A stretch of 64,000 nt of DNA from Escherichia phage FL31. Each line of letters begins with the position of its first letter. The first letter of the stretch is position 1. The stretch is from sequence record PP400782; one strand, 5' to 3'. The notes under the pieces are model-generated. The model saw only the letters and a program-made list of their open reading frames with translations. It searched no databases and was not told the origin of the DNA. Below, piece by piece: positions 3,500 to 46,403 of this stretch. The translations under genes were made by a program, and so were the position numbers.

Positions 3500-4186
3500 T
3501 TACCAGCCTTCCATAGGGAATTCCAGATAAACTTGAGCGTTGACACGAATTTCATTGGTAATCTTTTTAACTCGGTCTGTATTACGAGATACACGTCCAA
3601 ACCAACGCCATCCGTTACTAATTGCACGAGAACCAGTGTGCCATGTTTGCCAATCAAATTGAAGAAGAGTACGGTCTGGAGCTTCCCATTTCTCTAGTTC
3701 GCCTTTTTCGATTTTTTCGAGGACTTCTTTGTGCCACTGGCGATAGATAAGTTCGCCATCAGGAATCTGACTGAACTCTGCAGTTCCTGTTGCAAAATGA
3801 GTAGGACACACATCAGCGTTAACAAGACCAAGAATATGTTCAGACAAATAGCGAGGATTGTCATAGTCAGGTTGTCCTGCAGTAATAAAGTGTTGACCAA
3901 CTGGAATATCAGGGCGTGGAACATCGTCATGGTGATATCCAGGAATAGCAGGGTACCAGCCAGGCATCAGCATGTGGACTCGTGAATCAAATACAACCTG
4001 GTCGGTGTTCCAATCATCCGGCAAGTTCATGATGAAGCTGCGAGTAATAGGACCGCCGTTATTATAAGCAAATTCTAAACTACAGTTGAAGAACATAGGC
4101 TCGTTCTTGATTTTATCATTAGAAATACCGCCGGCAAAACCACCTACTGCACGAGCTTGACTATTAAACACTTTAGAACTATTCAT
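3500..4186 (-). CDS. Hypothetical protein (228 aa)
   Basis: ATG 4184-4186; long ORF in early block; His/Asp-rich motif GYHHDDVP; no family recognised. Confidence 0.55.
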   Translation of the reverse strand: MNSSKVFNSQARAVGGFAGGISNDKIKNEPMFFNCSLEFAYNNGGPITRSFIMNLPDDWNTDQVVFDSRVHMLMPGWYPAIPGYHHDDVPRPDIPVGQHFITAGQPDYDNPRYLSEHILGLVNADVCPTHFATGTAEFSQIPDGELIYRQWHKEVLEKIEKGELEKWEAPDRTLLQFDWQTWHTGSRAISNGWRWFGRVSRNTDRVKKITNEIRVNAQVYLEFPMEGW

Positions 4187-4493: not shown

Positions 4494-4513
4494 AATATTC
4501 TCCTCATGTTTTG

Positions 4514-4550
4514 GTAGGACTACTATAACATAGTCCTATAATTGTGTAAA
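4514..4550 (-). promoter_or_regulatory. Early promoter with stem-loop (TAGGACT..AGTCCTA around -10 TATAGT)
   Basis: Minus strand GTTTACACAATTATAGGACTATGTTATAGTAGTCCTACC. Confidence 0.55.
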
Positions 4551-4563
4551 CAGTTTTGCGAAA

Positions 4564-5520
4564 TTATTTGAAAGGTTTTACCATATGGAAATTTTGTTTG
4601 AAACGTTTGACGTAATCGTCATGTCCTAAGCTTTGGTACATACTTACTACTTTGCTGTAGTTTTCCCAGGCGTATTCACGGAACCAACCGGAGGTGATGC
4701 TTGTACAGACCTTTTCCAATGCCGTCATAAAACTGGCTTCAGGGTTAATTTTAAAGTCATTAGGAATCTGAGAACGTTCTAATGCTAATACACATGATTC
4801 TTCATATACACCGGCCAATTTGACCATTTCCGGTAATGATTCGAACTTCTCGCGTGAGGTCATGACTTCAGAACCATCTTTCATGTAAAATGTATACGCT
4901 GGACGGTCTGTTAGTGCAATGGCTTCATGAATAGTATCATGGTCATATGTATAGATGTCATCTTTAAAGAATGCGCTTTTAGAAGTGTCAAGAACCGGGT
5001 GAGCATAATTCAAGGTTTCTTTCTGGCGTTTCAGCATAATTTCAGTAAGTTCATCGTTCAGTGTAACACCTTTACCACGAAGATACTGAATATGGTTCAT
5101 AGTCTTTAAAAAGAATGGATTATTTTTCTTGAAACGATGAGACATCTTAATTGCAAGACACATCTCAGGAGTTGCCCAGTAAAACCCGTTAAAACGATCT
5201 TTAGTCAAATTTTTCTTGGCGTATTTTAAAAGGTCATAAGAAGACGTGAAATCTTCAGGAGTGAGTTCACCGACTAATTCACGGACATTAGTGATTGCCG
5301 GAACAATATATGCTTCAAAATGAGTTTCGCGTCCATTATGGAAGCATTTGAAAACTTGGACATCAGGGTTATCTTGGTGAACATATACACCCATCATTTG
5401 ATTTTTGAATGCATTCCAAGAACCTTGGTCCGCAATAAAGTCCCAATCACTATTTTTAATAGCGCTAGAATCAATAAGACCGTGATAGTGAAGTGCACGA
5501 GAACCAATAACTAACATCAT
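4564..5520 (-). CDS. Hypothetical protein (318 aa), possible nucleotidyltransferase-like N-terminus
   Basis: ATG 5518-5520; N-terminal IGSRALHYHG...DWDF loosely resembles G[GS]...DxD; no confident family. Confidence 0.55.
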   Translation of the reverse strand: MMLVIGSRALHYHGLIDSSAIKNSDWDFIADQGSWNAFKNQMMGVYVHQDNPDVQVFKCFHNGRETHFEAYIVPAITNVRELVGELTPEDFTSSYDLLKYAKKNLTKDRFNGFYWATPEMCLAIKMSHRFKKNNPFFLKTMNHIQYLRGKGVTLNDELTEIMLKRQKETLNYAHPVLDTSKSAFFKDDIYTYDHDTIHEAIALTDRPAYTFYMKDGSEVMTSREKFESLPEMVKLAGVYEESCVLALERSQIPNDFKINPEASFMTALEKVCTSITSGWFREYAWENYSKVVSMYQSLGHDDYVKRFKQNFHMVKPFK

Positions 5521-5548: not shown

Positions 5549-5800
5549 TTAAATTTCACGACATGCGATATTATATTCATCCCAGAGGTCATCGTGTGAA
5601 GCCTCTACTAATGGAACGATTGTACCATTTATGTCTTCATTATAAGGGCAAATTGTACAATGTGCATCTTCGAATCGGATGCCTTTGTGTTCAGATTTTT
5701 TATAACGCATATCGAATATCTTTGCAAACTTTTCACGAGTAATGGTTTTACCAACCACTTCGGTTCCGATACTTTCGTAATAAATCATTGTGGACTCCAT
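5549..5800 (-). CDS. Hypothetical protein (83 aa)
   Basis: ATG 5798-5800; palindromic early promoter upstream (5817-5846). Confidence 0.5.
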   Translation of the reverse strand: MESTMIYYESIGTEVVGKTITREKFAKIFDMRYKKSEHKGIRFEDAHCTICPYNEDINGTIVPLVEASHDDLWDEYNIACREI

Positions 5801-5808
5801 TTAATTTG

Positions 5809-5846
5809 ATAGGACTACTATAACATAGCCCTATCTTGTTGTAAAC
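5809..5846 (-). promoter_or_regulatory. Early promoter with stem-loop, same family
   Basis: ATAGGACT..AGCCCTAT arms (one mismatch) around TATAGT; GTTTAC at 5841-5846. Confidence 0.5.
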
Positions 5847-5851
5847 TGTTT

Positions 5852-6049
5852 TTAGCAAGAATAACTAGATGATACCCAGCCTTGAACAGTAATACTATTG
5901 TGGGATAATGAGATCGCGTCCTGGAGATTCAGACCTGCGTTATCTTCAATCCATAATGTAACTTCTTCGCGTTCTTCTGTTGCAATTTGGAACAGGTTTT
6001 CTAGAGCAGCTACTGCGGTACGTACAGCACAATCTAATTCACGAGACAT
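5852..6049 (-). CDS. Small acidic protein, paralogue 1 of tandem triplet ending WVSSSYSC
   Basis: 65 aa; ATG 6047-6049 with RBS TAAGGAAACC; C-terminal GWVSSSYSC shared with two upstream paralogues. Confidence 0.5.
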   Translation of the reverse strand: MSRELDCAVRTAVAALENLFQIATEEREEVTLWIEDNAGLNLQDAISLSHNSITVQGWVSSSYSC

Positions 6050-8649: not shown

Positions 8650-8697
8650 TTTGTTTTCCTCTTGATTTGATAGGAGACTACTATAACATAAACTTAC

Positions 8698-8862
8698 TTA
8701 GATGTAAATTATTTCAACGTCACCTTTAGCTGCTTTATAACCTTCAGCCCAAGATACAACAGAGTTTTTATCTGAGGATTCAAATTCAGGCATTGGACTT
8801 TCACCAATATTCACACAGTATGTTTCTTCATTTTCATCGAACCAAATAATTAAAGTAGTCAT
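8698..8862 (-). CDS. Small ORF (54 aa) below ORF-track cutoff, driven by the duplicated 47-bp cassette
   Basis: ATG 8860-8862; MTTLIIWFDENEETYCVNIGESPMPEF...; promoter, GAGGAG RBS and first codons identical to 45012-45058. Confidence 0.4.
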   Translation of the reverse strand: MTTLIIWFDENEETYCVNIGESPMPEFESSDKNSVVSWAEGYKAAKGDVEIIYI

Positions 8863-8902
8863 TTTGTTTACTCCTCTGTAGTTGATAAGTCTATAGTATC
8901 AC
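8856..8902 (-). repeat. 47-bp exact direct repeat, copy A (early promoter -10, 5'UTR, RBS, ATG and first codons)
   Basis: TAGTCATTTTGTTTACTCCTCTGTAGTTGATAAGTCTATAGTATCAC read on the plus strand; identical at 45012-45058. Confidence 0.85.
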
Positions 8903-8930: not shown

Positions 8931-9236
8931 TTAATTTTTCCAACTTAACAACTTGTAGTGTCCTTCATTCATACGTGGTTTATCCCAAGAAATACTAATA
9001 TATGATTCGCTGTCAATAGAAGTCGCCGGGTTTTTCTCTACCGTAAGACCTTCACTTTCCAGCCATTCAATAGTATTTGCGCATAAATCAGAAGAACACC
9101 TAATCGGAAACCGGCAAGATTTTTCACCTTTAGCTGCAGTGTTATACATCTTTTCTAAAATACGCTTTTGCACGTTTTTAAAAATAGTTTCAGCAGATTC
9201 TTCAGATTTTTTATTCAGTTCAGTGTAAAGACTCAT
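8931..9236 (-). CDS. Hypothetical protein (101 aa)
   Basis: ATG 9234-9236; GAGGAG RBS; early promoter GTTTAC-N17-TACTAT at 9265-9293. Confidence 0.5.
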   Translation of the reverse strand: MSLYTELNKKSEESAETIFKNVQKRILEKMYNTAAKGEKSCRFPIRCSSDLCANTIEWLESEGLTVEKNPATSIDSESYISISWDKPRMNEGHYKLLSWKN

Positions 9237-9323
9237 AATATTCTCCTCATGTTTTGATAGGTCTATAGTAACACATCTAGGGAAGAAGTAAACAACTTTT
9301 TCAGTAAGTTATAGACCCCCTAA

Positions 9324-11894: not shown

Positions 11895-12057
11895 TTTATT
11901 TCTCCATTTACTCATTTGTTTTGATAGGACTACTATAACATATCCCTATAGGCTTGTATACCTTTATTTCAAATATATTGCGTATTTTTTATAGCCACCA
12001 GGCTCGTGTCGAAGACCTTTATCATTCGCAAAACGTTGAATGTTATTGAACTGGTTT

Positions 12058-12228: not shown

Positions 12229-12252
12229 TTTAGGTTCCATTTGGTTGTTTTG

Positions 12253-12289
12253 ATAGGACTACTATAACATAGTCCTATCATGTTGTAAA
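12253..12289 (-). promoter_or_regulatory. Early promoter with perfect 8-bp stem-loop (ATAGGACT/AGTCCTAT)
   Basis: TTTACA-N17-TATAGT; arms at 12253-12260 and 12271-12278. Confidence 0.55.
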
Positions 12290-12601
12290 TTATTTTATGC
12301 CTTTAGAAGAAATGGTATTTTGGCGTTTGGCCCCTGTTTGTGAAAAATCGTGGTTATCGATTTGGTCAACTCTCATAACACCAAATGCGGATTTAATTTT
12401 GGCTTTTGAACCTTTTTTGATACTAATTATCATATAAGTATCATTTTTCTTATATTCGAAATTTGTTACTTCAACGCCTTGATTAGAAATTGACTTAATA
12501 ATAGCATTAGCGTATTCATCATCTAATGGACCGGTAGTGTTAATAATAAAATTTTTATCTGGTTTAGTAGCTTCAGCGATAAACTCTTGATAAGTTTTCA
12601 T
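12290..12601 (-). CDS. CTS-bearing internal protein at the ipI locus (103 aa)
   Basis: Trimmed to ATG 12599-12601 (MKTYQEFIAEATKPD...), exact T4 IP leader; sits where T4 encodes ipI. Confidence 0.6.
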   Translation of the reverse strand: MKTYQEFIAEATKPDKNFIINTTGPLDDEYANAIIKSISNQGVEVTNFEYKKNDTYMIISIKKGSKAKIKSAFGVMRVDQIDNHDFSQTGAKRQNTISSKGIK

Positions 12602-12630
12602 TTGTTTTTCCGTTTGGTTTGTGATTTGAT

Positions 12631-12666
12631 AGGATGATAGTAACACACCATCATCCTTATGTAAAC
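12631..12666 (-). promoter_or_regulatory. Early promoter with 8-bp stem-loop (AGGATGAT/ATCATCCT) for the ipI-locus CTS gene
   Basis: GTTTACA-N18-TACTAT; arms 12631-12638 and 12650-12657. Confidence 0.5.
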
Positions 12667-12679
12667 TGTTTTGTGAAAA

Positions 12680-40968: not shown

Positions 40969-41198
40969 TGGACGATTTAATTCAAGCTATTAAATCAAAC
41001 GACCTCGTTGCTACTCGAAAGTTTTTTGAAAGTGCAATGGCAGAAAAAACGGTTCGTTTGATTGAAGCACGCAAAGCAGAAATCGCTTCTCAATTTTTGA
41101 TTGAAGGCGAAGAACCCGAAGAAGAAGAGAAAGCTTCGGAAGACGACGCTGATGAAGGCGATGACGACGAAGACGAAGATGATGAGGACGATGAATAA
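40968..41198 (+). CDS. 67: Prohead core protein gp67
   Basis: 76 aa with poly-acidic C-terminus; TAATG overlap with gene 20. Confidence 0.8.
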
Positions 41199-42297: not shown

Positions 42298-43110
42298 ATG
42301 ATCAAAGAACAACTTTTGAAAGAAGCTCAGAATATCGAGACTTCAGTTGCTCTTAATAGTGTTTTCGAATCAGTAGAACTGTCTCCGGACGTTAAAGCTA
42401 ATTTCAGCACTGTATTCGAAGCCACCGTTAAGCAGGAAGCAGTCAAACTAGCTGAATCTCATATCAAAGCTATCGCCGAAAAAGCCGAAGAAGAAGTTGA
42501 AAAGGCTAAAGAAGATGCTGAAGAGAAAGCTGATAAAAAATTGGCTGAACAAGCTTCTAAATTCCTGGACCATCTTGCAAAAGAATGGCTCGCAGAAAAC
42601 CAAATCGCAGTTGATAAAGGCATTAAAGCTGATTTGTTCGAATCCATGCTTGGTGGTCTGAAAGAACTGTTTGTTGAACATAACGTTGTTGTTCCAGAAG
42701 AATCTGTAGATGTTGTAGCAGAAATGGAAGAAGAGCTGGCCGAACATAAAGAAGAAACCGCTCGTTTGTTCGAAGAAGTTACCAAACGTGATGCATATAT
42801 CAATTACGTTCAGCGTGAAACCGCTATTAATGAAAGCGTGAAAGACCTGACTGAATCTCAGAAAGAAAAAGTTATTGGCCTGGTTGAAGGTATGGATTAT
42901 TCTGACGCATTTGGTACTAAGTTAACTGCTATTGTAGAAATGGTTAAAGGTTCTACTAAAGAAGAAGCCGCTATTACCGAAAGTATAAATACAGTTGACA
43001 ATGACGCTGCCGGTCTTAATTTTGTTGCCGAAGCAGTTGACACTACCACAACTCAGGTAGAACAGAATTCTAATGTAAGTTTATATGCGAAAGTCGCATC
43101 TCGTTTCTAA
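42298..43110 (+). CDS. 22: Prohead core scaffold protein gp22
   Basis: 270 aa, acidic coiled-coil-like. Confidence 0.9.
   Translation: MIKEQLLKEAQNIETSVALNSVFESVELSPDVKANFSTVFEATVKQEAVKLAESHIKAIAEKAEEEVEKAKEDAEEKADKKLAEQASKFLDHLAKEWLAENQIAVDKGIKADLFESMLGGLKELFVEHNVVVPEESVDVVAEMEEELAEHKEETARLFEEVTKRDAYINYVQRETAINESVKDLTESQKEKVIGLVEGMDYSDAFGTKLTAIVEMVKGSTKEEAAITESINTVDNDAAGLNFVAEAVDTTTTQVEQNSNVSLYAKVASRF
42984..42991 (+). promoter_or_regulatory. Late promoter TATAAATA for gene 23, inside the 3' end of gene 22
   Basis: AGTATAAATACAG about 137 nt upstream of the gp23 ATG. Confidence 0.55.
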
Positions 43111-43127: not shown

Positions 43128-44696
43128 ATGACTACTATCAAAACTAAAGCTCAGCTCGTAGACAAATGGAAAGAACTGCTGGAAGGTGAAGGCCTGCCGG
43201 AAATCGCTAATAGCAAGCAGGCTATTATCGCTAAAATCTTCGAAAACCAGGAAAAAGATTTCGAAGTATCCCCTGAATATAAAGACGAGAAAATCGCTCA
43301 GGCATTTGGTTCTTTCTTGACCGAAGCTGAAATTGGTGGTGACCATGGTTATAATGCTCAGAACATCGCAGCAGGTCAAACCTCTGGTGCAGTAACCCAA
43401 ATTGGGCCGGCAGTTATGGGTATGGTTCGTCGTGCTATTCCTAATCTGATCGCTTTTGATATTTGTGGTGTTCAGCCTATGAACAGCCCGACCGGACAGG
43501 TATTTGCTCTCCGTGCAGTATATGGTAAAGACCCTATCGCTGCTGGCGCTAAAGAAGCTTTCCATCCGATGTATGCCCCAGACGCGATGTTCTCTGGTCA
43601 GGGTGCTGCTAAGAAATTCCCAGCTCTGGCTGCTGACACTACTACTGTTGTAGGTGATATCTATACTCACTTCTTCCAAGAAACTGGTACTGTATATCTG
43701 CAAGCTTCTGCTGTCGTAACACTTGATTCTGGTGCAACTGATGCAGCTAAATTAGATGCAGAAGTTAAGAAACAAATGGAAGCTGGTGCACTGGTAGAAA
43801 TCGCTGAAGGTATGGCTACTTCTATCGCTGAACTCCAGGAAGGTTTCAACGGTTCTACCGATAACCCATGGAATGAAATGGGCTTCCGTATCGATAAACA
43901 AGTTATCGAAGCTAAATCTCGCCAGCTGAAAGCTGCTTACTCTATCGAATTAGCACAAGACCTCCGTGCAGTACACGGTATGGATGCTGATGCTGAACTG
44001 AGCGGTATTCTGGCTACAGAAATTATGCTAGAAATCAACCGTGAAGTTGTTGATTGGATTAACTACTCAGCACAGGTCGGTAAATCTGGTATGACCCTGA
44101 CTCCTGGTTCTAAAGCTGGTGTATTTGACTTCCAGGACCCGATTGATATCCGTGGTGCTCGTTGGGCCGGTGAAAGCTTTAAATCTCTGTTGTTCCAGAT
44201 TGATAAAGAAGCAGTTGAAATTGCTCGTCAAACCGGGCGTGGTGAAGGTAACTTCATTATCGCTTCCCGTAACGTAGTTAACGTACTGGCTTCAGTTGAT
44301 ACTGGTATTTCTTACGCTGCACAGGGCCTGGCTTCTGGTTTTAATACCGACACTACTAAGTCTGTATTTGCCGGTGTACTTGGTGGTAAATACCGCGTAT
44401 ACATTGACCAGTATGCTAAACAGGATTACTTCACCGTTGGTTACAAAGGCGCTAACGAAATGGATGCAGGTATTTACTATGCTCCTTACGTTGCACTTAC
44501 CCCACTGCGTGGTTCCGATCCTAAGAACTTCCAGCCGGTAATGGGCTTTAAAACTCGTTACGGTATCGGTGTTAACCCGTTTGCTGAAAGTTCCCTGCAG
44601 GCTCCAGGTGCTCGCATCCAGTCCGGTATGCCGTCTATCCTGAACAGCCTTGGTAAGAACGCTTACTTCCGCCGTGTATATGTAAAAGGCATCTAA
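43128..44696 (+). CDS. 23: Major capsid protein gp23
   Basis: 522 aa; MTTIKTKAQLVDKWKELLEGEGLPEIANSKQAIIAKIFENQEKDF...; near-identical to T4 gp23 as recalled. Confidence 0.97.
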   Translation: MTTIKTKAQLVDKWKELLEGEGLPEIANSKQAIIAKIFENQEKDFEVSPEYKDEKIAQAFGSFLTEAEIGGDHGYNAQNIAAGQTSGAVTQIGPAVMGMVRRAIPNLIAFDICGVQPMNSPTGQVFALRAVYGKDPIAAGAKEAFHPMYAPDAMFSGQGAAKKFPALAADTTTVVGDIYTHFFQETGTVYLQASAVVTLDSGATDAAKLDAEVKKQMEAGALVEIAEGMATSIAELQEGFNGSTDNPWNEMGFRIDKQVIEAKSRQLKAAYSIELAQDLRAVHGMDADAELSGILATEIMLEINREVVDWINYSAQVGKSGMTLTPGSKAGVFDFQDPIDIRGARWAGESFKSLLFQIDKEAVEIARQTGRGEGNFIIASRNVVNVLASVDTGISYAAQGLASGFNTDTTKSVFAGVLGGKYRVYIDQYAKQDYFTVGYKGANEMDAGIYYAPYVALTPLRGSDPKNFQPVMGFKTRYGIGVNPFAESSLQAPGARIQSGMPSILNSLGKNAYFRRVYVKGI

Positions 44697-44720
44697 TCTT
44701 AATTGATTAAATCTTATTTT

Positions 44721-44738
44721 GGGAGACTTCGGTCTCCC
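44721..44738 (+). terminator. UUCG-tetraloop hairpin plus T-run after gene 23
   Basis: GGGAGAC-TTCG-GTCTCCC followed by ATTTTTGG; same 18-mer as 25380-25397. Confidence 0.65.
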
Positions 44739-44748
44739 ATTTTTGGTT

Positions 44749-45018
44749 TTATTTCTGTGCAATTTCGATGTAAGTTTTCAAAATATTTTGCCAATTAGGC
44801 ATACCTTCTTGGACATATGCCGGAGAACCATCTTTGTTTTTGAATGATGCAAGTTTATCAGTGGCCCAATAACCTTTAGCTCGAGCTTCAGAATCAACTT
44901 TCATCCATACTTTGTTGAAGGCATTACCATTAACTTTTGCACCGTATTTTTCTACTAACTTAACTGCTTCAGCTTCCAGAACTTTTAAAGTATCTCGTAA
45001 GAAACGTGCTTTAGTCAT
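44749..45018 (-). CDS. Small early protein (89 aa) on the opposite strand in the 23-24 intergenic slot
   Basis: ATG 45016-45018; own early promoter GTTTACA-N17-TACTAT; MTKARFLRDTLKVLEAEAVKLVEKYGAKVNGN...; T4 carries segD here (recall). Confidence 0.55.
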   Translation of the reverse strand: MTKARFLRDTLKVLEAEAVKLVEKYGAKVNGNAFNKVWMKVDSEARAKGYWATDKLASFKNKDGSPAYVQEGMPNWQNILKTYIEIAQK

Positions 45019-45058
45019 TTTGTTTACTCCTCTGTAGTTGATAAGTCTATAGTATCAC
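45012..45058 (-). repeat. 47-bp exact direct repeat, copy B
   Basis: Identical to 8856-8902 by direct comparison of the two stretches. Confidence 0.85.
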
Positions 45059-45078
45059 ATACTAAATACGTTGTAAAC
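45049..45078 (-). promoter_or_regulatory. Early promoter (GTTTACA-N17-TACTAT) for ORF 44749-45018
   Basis: -10 and 5'UTR are part of the 47-bp cassette repeated at 8856-8902. Confidence 0.55.
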
Positions 45079-45084
45079 AATCTT

Positions 45085-45092
45085 TATAAATA
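45085..45092 (+). promoter_or_regulatory. Late promoter TATAAATA for gene 24
   Basis: TATAAATA 27 nt upstream of the gp24 ATG. Confidence 0.6.
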
Positions 45093-45119: not shown

Positions 45120-46403
45120 ATGAGTAAAATCCAAAAATTATTGCGTGAATCTACAACGTCTACTAGCAACTCAATTGGTCGCCCAAATCTCGTTGCTTTG
45201 ACTCGCGCTACGACTAAATTAATATATTCTGACATTGTAGCAACACAAAGAACTAATCAACCTGTTGCTGCTTTTTATGGTATCAAATATCTTAACCCAG
45301 ATAACGAATTCACATTTAAAACCGGTGCTACTTATGCTGGCGAAGTTGGATATGTAGACCGAGAAAAAATTACTGAGCTCACAGAAGAATCAAAAGTCAC
45401 ACTAAATAAAGGTGATTTTTTCAAATATAATAATATCGTCTATAAAGTGTTAGAAGATACACCATTTGCAGATATTCAAGAAAGTGATCTAGAATTAGCT
45501 CTTCAGATTGCAGTCGTTCATTTAAAGGTACGGTTATTTTCAGATGCAGCGGTAACAAGCAAATTTGAAAGCTCTGATAGCGAAATTTCTGATGCAAGAT
45601 TCCAGATTAATAAATGGCAAACTTCAGTCAAATCTCGCAAACTTAAAACTGGTCTCACGGTTGAATTAGCGCAAGATTTGGAAGCGAATGGATTTGATGC
45701 TCCTAACTTCTTAGAGGATTTGCTTGCTACTGAAATGGCTGATGAAATTAATAAAGATATTCTTCAGTCTTTAATTACTGTATCGAAACGTTATAAAGTT
45801 ACTGGAATTACTGACACCGGATTTATTGACTTGAGCTATGCATCCGCTCCAGAAGCAGGTCGTTCATTATATCGAATGGTGTGTGAAATGGTATCACACA
45901 TTCAAAAAGAGACAACTTATACTGCAACGTTTTGTGTAGCCTCAGCTCGTGCAGCTGCTATTCTTGCTGCTTCCGGTTGGTTAAAACATAAGCCAGAAGA
46001 TGACAAGTATCTTTCACAAAATGCTTATGGATTCTTGGCAAATGGATTACCTCTTTACTGCGATACCAACAGTCCGTTAGATTATGTTATTGTTGGTGTT
46101 GTAGAAAATATCGGCGAAAAAGAAATTGTAGGGTCCATCTTTTATGCTCCATACACTGAAGGAGTAGATTTAGATGACCCGGAACATGTTGGTGCATTTA
46201 AAGTTGTAGTTGATCCAGAAAGCTTGCAACCGTCTATCGGATTATTGGTTAGATATGCTTTATCAGCAAATCCTTACACAGTAGCAAAAGATGAAAAAGA
46301 AGCGAGAGTAATTGATGGCGGGGACATGGATAAAATGGCAGGACGTTCAGACTTGTCTGTTTTACTCGGTGTTAAATTGCCTAAAATTATTATAGATGAA
46401 TAA
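45120..46403 (+). CDS. 24: Capsid vertex protein gp24
   Basis: 427 aa, same length as T4 gp24; gp23-like fold expected. Confidence 0.9.
   Translation: MSKIQKLLRESTTSTSNSIGRPNLVALTRATTKLIYSDIVATQRTNQPVAAFYGIKYLNPDNEFTFKTGATYAGEVGYVDREKITELTEESKVTLNKGDFFKYNNIVYKVLEDTPFADIQESDLELALQIAVVHLKVRLFSDAAVTSKFESSDSEISDARFQINKWQTSVKSRKLKTGLTVELAQDLEANGFDAPNFLEDLLATEMADEINKDILQSLITVSKRYKVTGITDTGFIDLSYASAPEAGRSLYRMVCEMVSHIQKETTYTATFCVASARAAAILAASGWLKHKPEDDKYLSQNAYGFLANGLPLYCDTNSPLDYVIVGVVENIGEKEIVGSIFYAPYTEGVDLDDPEHVGAFKVVVDPESLQPSIGLLVRYALSANPYTVAKDEKEARVIDGGDMDKMAGRSDLSVLLGVKLPKIIIDE

Follow-up and report, generated by a model that had tools for sequence, protein, structure and literature searches.

A small gene with an early-type promoter in the variable slot between genes 23 and 24 of Mosigvirus and other T4-like phages

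Introduction

Several described systems offer points of comparison for small genes lodged between conserved phage genes. The morons of lambdoid phages, a concept that reportedly comes from Hendrix and colleagues, are self-contained genes with their own promoter, sit between genes that are neighbours in related phages and are dispensable. T4-type phages possess mobile regulatory cassettes called PeSL (Arbiol et al. 2010, PMC2839356; Comeau et al. 2014, PMC4122927), and the T4/PST early promoter consensus has been given as TTTACW-N17-TAYWAT (PMC4122927). In T4 itself, segD lies between genes 23 and 24 on the minus strand, in agreement with a sequence-only reading of the DNA analysed here. A time-resolved omics study of T4 assigns segD to the early-RNA/middle-protein class, with SegD quantified from the first sampled minutes (PMC9697503). 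In a 2010 review, no segD-specific promoter was identifiable and very low transcript levels were assumed (PMC2988022).

Here we describe the corresponding slot in Escherichia phage FL31 (record PP400782), within a stretch of 64,000 nt that is called the window throughout. The window belongs to an RB69-like Mosigvirus and shares 99.3–99.7% DNA identity with NicPhage, PhAPEC2, APCEc01 and many others.

Results

Gene arrangement between genes 23 and 24

The region from 43 to 47 kb of the window harbours the T4-type head genes, and rnlB follows gene 24 on the minus strand. Genes 23 and 24 are separated by 423 nt. In this gap lies a Lys-rich ORF of 89 codons on the minus strand, as the sequence-only reading had described it. 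The features of the slot and its flanks, among them every one named in that reading at its given position, are as follows.

43128..44696, plus strand: gene 23, major capsid protein, left flank of the slot; gp23 is 94.8% identical to T4 gp23
44720..44749, plus strand: intrinsic terminator of gene 23, GGGAGAC-UUCG-GUCUCCC followed by a U-run, with the hairpin at 44720-44739; from sequence and folding
44749..45018, minus strand: the gene, with ATG start, 89 codons and 89 aa; from the ORF list
45012..45058, minus strand: leader comprising −10 element, 5′UTR, Shine-Dalgarno sequence and start codon, with a copy at 8856-8902
45032-45027, minus strand: strong Shine-Dalgarno sequence GAGGAG, 8 nt 5′ of the ATG of the 89-aa ORF; read from the sequence
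45078-45072 and 45054-45049, minus strand: T4-early-type sigma-70 promoter GTTTACA-N17-TACTAT with a TG extended −10
45085-45092, plus strand: late promoter of gene 24, TATAAATA, 28 nt 5′ of the gene 24 ATG (45120)
45120..46403, plus strand: gene 24, capsid vertex protein, right flank of the slot; gp24 is 95.1% identical to T4 gp24

The presence of a separate early promoter inside the late head-gene block was confirmed at the sequence level. Its transcript is predicted to start at about 45041, and RNA folding gave no structure for the leader. The window contains ten sequences of the type GTTTAC-N18-TANNNT where 0.85 would be expected; nine are on the minus strand, which is the strand with the runs of small early-type genes. 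The early promoter and the late promoter of gene 24 stand back-to-back, 6 nt apart, and the late promoter is present in all slot variants.

The ORF had also been described as framed by the gene 23 terminator hairpin and the gene 24 late promoter. Both elements are in place, and the hairpin forms in the minus-strand RNA as well, 9 nt past the stop codon of the ORF. There it lacks a U-tract, so that it frames the ORF physically and provides no canonical intrinsic terminator on the strand of the ORF.

A catalogued gene that is split in the RB69 reference

The gene is already catalogued: some 240 GenBank phages have it annotated as a hypothetical protein, and it falls into PHROG 6003, with no assigned function. 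Its product matches the PHROG 6003 profile with an E-value of 2.1e-45, residues 1–89 aligning to profile positions 1–90 of 90, and is a plain member of this group of hypothetical proteins together with RB69 ORF188c-ORF189c, PhAPEC2 gp220 and VR7 gp190. In PhAPEC2 the counterpart is annotated as ‘similar to RB69ORF188c’, and proteins of 100% identity are annotated at the same position in many Mosigvirus genomes. Members of PHROG 6003 lie between genes 23 and 24 on the opposite strand in PhAPEC2, RB69, VR20, WG01, 04086 and KAW3E185. A literature search yielded no paper mentioning RB69ORF188c, its accession numbers or PHROG 6003.

A +1 indel, a −1 indel and clustered substitutions break the gene of the RB69 reference genome into ORF188c (41 aa) and ORF189c (29 aa). 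Phage mogra has a broken copy as well. Otherwise the copies are full-length, in 237 of the 239 phage records. Read against these full-length copies, ORF188c and ORF189c are evidently fragments, and the 89-aa ORF is the intact form of the gene. Judging from the two broken copies and from its absence in T4, the gene is non-essential.

Whether the ORF might be a conserved T4 gene that had gone unrecognised was checked with a family HMM searched against 98.8% of the T4 genome translated in six frames. No homologue was found (best E-value 0.56), and the ORF is therefore no overlooked T4 gene. The same HMM detected no paralogue of the ORF in the six-frame translation of the whole window. With three members as tblastn queries, the matches comprised only a Mosigvirus-type group (at least 80% identity), a Dhakavirus/Gaprivervirus-type group (below 60%) and phage ABPH49; no Tequatrovirus was among the matches listed for these three queries.

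Selection on the coding sequence

We estimated dN/dS by the Nei-Gojobori method for informative pairs of alleles and obtained values ranging from 0.10 to 0.14: 0.10 for the window against a 62%-identical metagenomic allele, 0.12 for VR20 against WG01, and 0.14 for WG01 against 04086, a pair with an unsaturated dS of 0.32. Values of about 0.1, together with the 237 intact frames among 239 records, indicate that the protein itself is under selection. By this measure, the 89-aa ORF is a real, selected coding gene and not a chance ORF.

That annotators had called a chance ORF a gene could have been suspected from its small size and opposite strand in an AT-rich genome, and from the split copy in the RB69 reference. 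This suspicion is already refuted by the conservation data, namely synteny in three genera at 30–37% identity, conserved motifs and the dN/dS of about 0.1; the Shine-Dalgarno sequence, the promoter and a confident fold prediction likewise speak against it, and we consider its probability negligible.

The same data bear on the idea that the promoter or the transcript, rather than the protein, is the functional element, either by sending an anti-late RNA into the 3′ end of gene 23 or by insulating genes 23 and 24 from each other. Because a U-tract is missing after the minus-strand hairpin, antisense read-through into gene 23 would be plausible, and conservation is higher for the promoter layout than for the protein. 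Low dN/dS and near-universal intact frames are, however, not what a merely transcribed region should display. In VR20, moreover, T-runs flank the hairpin on either side, and transcription should therefore stop there, and most T4-like genera manage with an empty slot of 80 nt and no such promoter. We regard a functional transcript as very improbable.

Composition, predicted fold and database searches

Lysine makes up 14.6% of the 89-aa protein compared with 6.4% in the long ORFs of the window, and the pI is 9.6; all family members but one have a pI between 9.2 and 9.9. With a GRAVY value of −0.56, the protein is predicted to be soluble. Across 14 aligned members, M1, K3, F6, L21, N30-G31-N32-A33, N35, A45, W51 and Q70 are invariant. 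An AlphaFold2 model based on the 14-member alignment (pLDDT 88.9, pTM 0.76) has helices at residues 3–25, 31–48 and 76–88 and a beta-hairpin at 56–70. In this model, the NGNAxN motif, which is the most conserved element, forms the turn joining helices 1 and 2.

The family check proposed in the sequence-only reading returned no informative family and no significant structural match. NCBIfam and PADLOC gave nothing meaningful for the protein, and the best hits of a sequence-profile search of the PDB (E-value 0.026) were unrelated proteins and designed coiled coils. Searched with Foldseek, the model matched its own family alone in BFVD and nothing in the PDB below an E-value of 0.49. Nothing in Rfam came near its gathering score for the slot between genes 23 and 24. 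The only Pfam match, to DUF4859, had an E-value of 0.0029 and 17.9 bits against a cut-off of 22.6 and was dismissed as noise.

The family is small: about 20 clusters were found in 5.8 billion proteins, and an exhaustive profile search gave nine matches among 1.8 billion representatives. Three of these nine were rejected: two large Big_2/Ig-repeat proteins (P0022 and P0024), whose spurious scores were summed over repeats, and an assembly chimera (P0020).

A helical basic protein of this kind could equally well bind nucleic acid, and this is the main rival to the host-binding role discussed below. Such a factor would coat or bend DNA, or bind RNA, and so modulate host or phage gene expression in a role like that of T4 MotB, a Lys-rich early DNA binder (PMC7827196) to which the likeness would be one of role and not of sequence. 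The high lysine content and a basic pI retained across members of only 30% identity are consistent with such a role. The lowest-E matches of the model in the PDB include winged-helix proteins (ORC2 C-terminal domain, DnaD N-terminal domain, HTH regulators), which are not significant at E-values of 0.49 or more and TM-scores of 0.28 or less. On the other side, the protein matched no HTH or other DNA-binding family, its order of helix, helix, hairpin and helix is not that of a canonical winged helix, and its most conserved element is the NGNAxN loop and no basic surface patch. Taken together, we consider a nucleic-acid-binding role rather unlikely.

Occupancy of the slot across T4-like phages

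A survey of the slot across T-even genomes, suggested together with the original observation, used as query the end of gene 23 joined to the start of gene 24. Mosigvirus has a slot of 423 nt and Dhakavirus one of about 434 nt. It is about 81–83 nt long in most Tequatrovirus genomes and equally short in representatives of Karamvirus, Slopekvirus/Jiaodavirus-type Klebsiella phages, Gelderlandvirus, and Kosakonia and Serratia phages. A slot of 80 nt has space for the terminator and the late promoter only. The slot is filled by homologous ORFs in three genera and empty in most other T4-like genera, and relative to this empty state of about 80 nt, the ORF and its promoter constitute an insertion.

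Homologues of 30–37% identity, in the same slot and orientation, were found in Gaprivervirus VR20, in Dhakavirus WG01 and 04086, and in two metagenomic T-evens. Between the genera that carry these divergent alleles, gp23 is 84% and gp24 70% identical. The slot protein has therefore either diverged faster than its neighbours, or the alleles are old and divergent.

The description of the gene as moron-like is a fair one, because the ORF and its promoter are inserted into an otherwise empty slot. Like the morons of lambdoid phages, the unit is self-contained, has its own promoter, lies between genes adjacent in relatives and is dispensable. In contrast to those morons, it belongs to a strictly lytic phage, so expression from a prophage does not apply, and the GC content of the ORF (35.6%) is not distinct from that of the window (37.9%) as would be expected of a moron. 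Of the promoter and terminator of its own that a moron would have, the unit has the promoter; the sole hairpin downstream is the one borrowed from gene 23, which lacks a U-tract on the strand of the ORF.

Exchange of the intergenic cassette and relation to segD

By its sequence, the 89-aa protein is unrelated to SegD. This bears out the earlier description of an unrelated small gene in place of segD: Pfam found no GIY-YIG domain in the protein, and 38 phages carry the small gene alongside a SegD homologue.

Phage KAW3E185, classified as a Mosigvirus, is informative in this respect. In gp23 it is 99.6% and in gp24 99.8% identical to the window. Its slot holds a Dhaka-type allele that is 94% identical to that of WG01 and 31% identical to that of the window, and 3 nt downstream of this ORF, on the same strand, lies a gene for a 219-aa SegD homologue with 58% identity to T4 SegD. 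In a four-way alignment, the identity between KAW3E185 and the window is lost in the 5′UTR of gene 24 and regained in the last codons of gene 23. The junctions hence flank the whole intergenic region, indicating that the entire cassette was replaced. Such a swap fits the pattern expected from endonuclease-associated co-conversion. We counted 38 phage records with the ORF-SegD junction, and another 49 in which the query matched over its Dhaka-type ORF portion alone, without the junction.

The locus of T4 segD resembles that of the slot ORF in several respects: it occupies the same slot on the opposite strand, with the TATAAATA complement back-to-back with an early-type promoter. It differs in encoding an unrelated protein and in the complete absence of the small ORF. 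The T4 sequence reads ATTTACA-N17-TATTAT, followed by a similar leader whose ATG leads directly into segD. This candidate early-type promoter of T4 segD aligns with the position of the slot promoter.

At least four states of the slot can be distinguished: empty, ORF alone, ORF with SegD, and segD alone. The genome comparisons show an intergenic cassette that is exchanged between phages, sometimes with a gene for a SegD-type homing endonuclease directly downstream.

It might be argued that the small gene is a passenger or helper of this endonuclease cassette, kept by co-conversion or aiding or regulating homing. The tight spacing of ORF and SegD homologue on one strand in 38 records, the replacement of the whole intergenic region in KAW3E185, and the fusion of T4 segD to the same promoter and leader layout would all agree with this. 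About 200 of the 239 carriers, however, have no endonuclease gene at all, including every Mosig-type allele examined, and none is adjacent to the family members on the Vequintavirinae-like and siphovirus contigs described below. Purifying selection on the ORF itself is a further argument against this possibility, which we judge improbable.

Early-gene leaders, the 47-nt repeat and PeSL cassettes

In the sequence-only reading, the gene was thought to have been delivered by a duplicated cassette. An exact repeat of 47 nt connects 45012-45058 with 8856-8902 and extends from the extended −10 through the 5′UTR and the Shine-Dalgarno sequence to ATGACTA. The partner leader heads an unrelated ORF of 54 aa at 8698..8862 on the minus strand, which belongs to PHROG 5461. 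This partner locus is native; with its leader, it is about 87% conserved in Tequatrovirus phages that have no slot gene. About nine early-gene leaders in the window share a TAYTATAGRCYTATCAA-type core, and a 101-aa ORF at 9236 has almost the same leader as the Dhakavirus slot gene.

Delivery by the duplicated cassette is not supported by these comparisons. The leader is one of a family of about nine, the layout of late promoter, early promoter and leader is common to the slot genes of Mosigvirus, Dhakavirus and Gaprivervirus and to T4 segD, the locus of the partner is native, and only 43 of 47 positions agree between the two RB69 leaders. The one swap that could be mapped has its junctions outside the leader, and a recent arrival via the 47-nt cassette was rejected as well. 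The identity over 47 nt looks instead like the outcome of sequence homogenisation among early-gene leaders, and not like the vehicle of the gene.

The leader family of the window corresponds to the published PeSL concept, and the slot copy lacks the defining stem-loop. As in PeSL, a promoter of the form TTTACA-N17-TACTAT is followed by GAGGAG and then the ATG, near-identical leader copies stand beside unrelated small ORFs, and the slot unit shares the association with indels and gene swaps. Unlike in PeSL, there is no stem-loop 5′ of the −35 element, where the late promoter of gene 24 occupies the space. The 64 nt covering the −35 element and the region upstream fold no better than shuffled sequences (z +1.1), compared with z-scores of −5.5 and −6.4 for other early promoters in the window with a strong hairpin. 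The slot differs further from PeSL in lying within a conserved head-gene block and not in a hyperplastic region, and in having its mapped swap junctions at the 3′ end of gene 23 and in the 5′UTR of gene 24 instead of in the leader.

Expected timing of expression

Based on the promoter sequence and the behaviour of T4 segD, the 89-aa gene is probably expressed early. As T4 segD behind an equivalent promoter is an early RNA, we infer that host RNA polymerase would transcribe the gene in the first minutes of infection. The early promoter agrees with the T4/PST early consensus, and its layout is kept in the window, RB69, WG01, VR20, 04086, KAW3E185, the two metagenomic T-evens and T4 segD. Our literature search found no Mosigvirus transcriptome.

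Relatives outside T4-like phages

Beyond the T4-like phages, we found members with 29–35% identity to the protein of the window. One is encoded by the Vequintavirinae phage ABPH49, where it stands in a series of short hypothetical genes with a common orientation, and another by a related contig (L010). A further member lies between a tail-tip gene and a gene for a DnaQ-like exonuclease, in a contig with about 69% identity to 42-kb Serratia siphoviruses; by tblastn, no homologue was detected in the cultured Serratia-siphovirus relatives. All carriers infect Enterobacterales or resemble phages that do, except ABPH49, whose host is recorded as Acinetobacter.

A role in capsid assembly, which the neighbouring genes might bring to mind, was rejected. 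Relatives are found in phages whose capsids are unrelated, most T4-like genera do without the gene, and in PhAPEC2 the neighbouring head genes are noted as structural virion proteins, which is not so for the counterpart of the 89-aa gene.

Discussion

The gene is an accessory gene of T-even-type coliphages, and on balance we lean towards the view that its early, small and basic product binds a host component and serves host takeover or counter-defence on some hosts. In outline, promoter, leader and ORF form a self-contained unit in the polymorphic slot between genes 23 and 24. The product would be small, soluble and basic, with the conserved NGNAxN loop and a so far unmatched fold made up of three helices and one beta-hairpin. 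It would act stoichiometrically by binding a macromolecule of the enterobacterial (Enterobacterales) host, as a takeover or counter-defence factor that may be needed only on some hosts. Since the carriers differ in having unrelated virion and replication machinery, the binding partner is more likely to be a host component than a T4-specific protein. Occurrence in several phage lineages would be just as compatible with any function of general use and does not point to counter-defence in particular.

A more far-reaching version is tentative and, in our estimation, doubtful. According to it, the family would be a new class of host-directed effectors, for counter-defence or host takeover, with an unseen small fold, traded among three lineages of Enterobacterales phages that are unrelated to each other (T-even myoviruses, Vequintavirinae-like myoviruses and Serratia-type siphoviruses), with the divergent Mosig and Dhaka types as specificity alleles and with co-conversion driven by SegD swapping them among T-even phages.

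The host-binding role would place the protein beside other small T-even early proteins of takeover or counter-defence, such as Emp/Gp94 of Mosigvirus AV110 and T4 MotB. It resembles them in its small size and predicted early promoter, and in being dispensable, lineage-restricted and of no known fold; it differs in that no sequence or structural relationship to them was found. In AV110, a toxicity screen of Mosigvirus early proteins chose its candidates by homology to T4 (bioRxiv 10.64898/2026.09.14.751387). As T4 has no homologue, the 89-aa gene was left out of that screen.

The element is ordinary in kind, sits in a spot of a type known to be prone to swaps and will not surprise a specialist. 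Its practical use lies in functional screens, for which it is a candidate that is selected, probably early, dispensable and fast-evolving, with no known fold. The slot also provides a compact natural experiment, with at least four states in the most conserved block of T-even genomes and a visible exchange of a whole cassette between genera. It is thus a clean example of cassette exchange inside a conserved head-gene block.

The gene 23–24 slot in T4 and Mosigvirus-type phages

In T4, the slot between the major capsid gene (gene 23) and the capsid vertex gene (gene 24) is occupied by the GIY-YIG homing endonuclease gene segD, upstream of which lies the following region:

About 5234-5320 of the T4 locus L005 (NC_000866, 102000-112000), minus strand: segD upstream promoter region, aligned to window 45019-45092

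In this alignment, the motif ATTTACA-N17-TATTAT with TG precedes segD. This early-type promoter lies back-to-back with the late promoter of gene 24, and its counterpart in the alignment is the slot promoter of Mosigvirus and Dhakavirus. According to a 2010 review, the segD promoter could not be found (PMC2988022); in the supplements of a T4 omics study, segD RNA is classed as early and the protein is detected (PMC9697503).

SegD homologues also occur, together with a Dhakavirus-type slot allele, in phages whose gp23 and gp24 are Mosigvirus-type, as in phage KAW3E185:

2400-3480 of the KAW3E185 locus L013: Dhakavirus-type slot allele and SegD homologue

We identified this slot state in 38 records, including JK45, ATK47, AV114, the LF82 series, mobillu and PNJ-9. 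In these phages the replacement extends over the entire intergenic region and takes in both the terminator of gene 23 and the late promoter of gene 24. Annotated T4 segD has a second in-frame ATG, which aligns with the start of the SegD homologue in KAW3E185.

The slot gene is a single 89-aa gene in all Mosigviruses other than RB69, whereas the RB69 reference carries two annotated fragments, ORF188c (41 aa) and ORF189c (29 aa):

3792-4032 of the RB69 locus L018 (NC_004928): split slot gene, corresponding to window 44749-45018

The split is due to a +1 indel, a -1 indel and a substitution cluster. These changes reflect either genuine decay of the gene in the laboratory strain or mistakes in the sequence determined in 2003.

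L002, L003, L006 and L008, which represent Gaprivervirus, Dhakavirus and metagenomic T-evens, have a tandem pair of gp24 paralogues, capsid vertex proteins I and II, beside the slot, whereas Mosigvirus and T4 have a single gp24 there. The 90-aa family member P0006 is labelled "NADPH-dependent curcumin reductase CurA" by one source, evidently an annotation transfer error.

Repeats and leaders within the window

These repeats occur in the window:

4503-4558, 5798-5853, 8661-8716, 11913-11968, 12242-12297 and 12618-12673, minus strand: early promoter element of 56 nt, present in six copies
41108-41185 and 42477-42536: GAAGA-rich imperfect direct repeats

The 56-nt elements form a strong hairpin, GATAGGACTA...TAGTCCTATC, across the spacer and -10 (z about -5.5 to -6.4), and constitute a PeSL-like repeat family of the hyperplastic early region (PeSL: a mobile cassette of early promoter and stem-loop). 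The slot promoter lacks that hairpin. The GAAGA-rich repeats look like low-complexity coding sequence, not a mobile repeat; 42477-42536 lies within the gene 22 scaffold ORF (42298..43110), encoding acidic Glu/Asp/Lys-rich runs, and 41108-41185 lies a short way upstream of the ORF for the prohead protease (start 41623).

The leader of one early ORF in the window resembles that of the Dhakavirus slot gene:

9228-9274, minus strand: leader of the 101-aa ORF 8931..9236

It is nearly identical (GTTACTATAGACCTATCAAAACATGAGGAG) to the slot-gene leader of Dhakavirus WG01 (L003, 2455-2500); the early ORF itself is unrelated to the slot gene. Early-gene leaders of this kind are common to different genes and genera.
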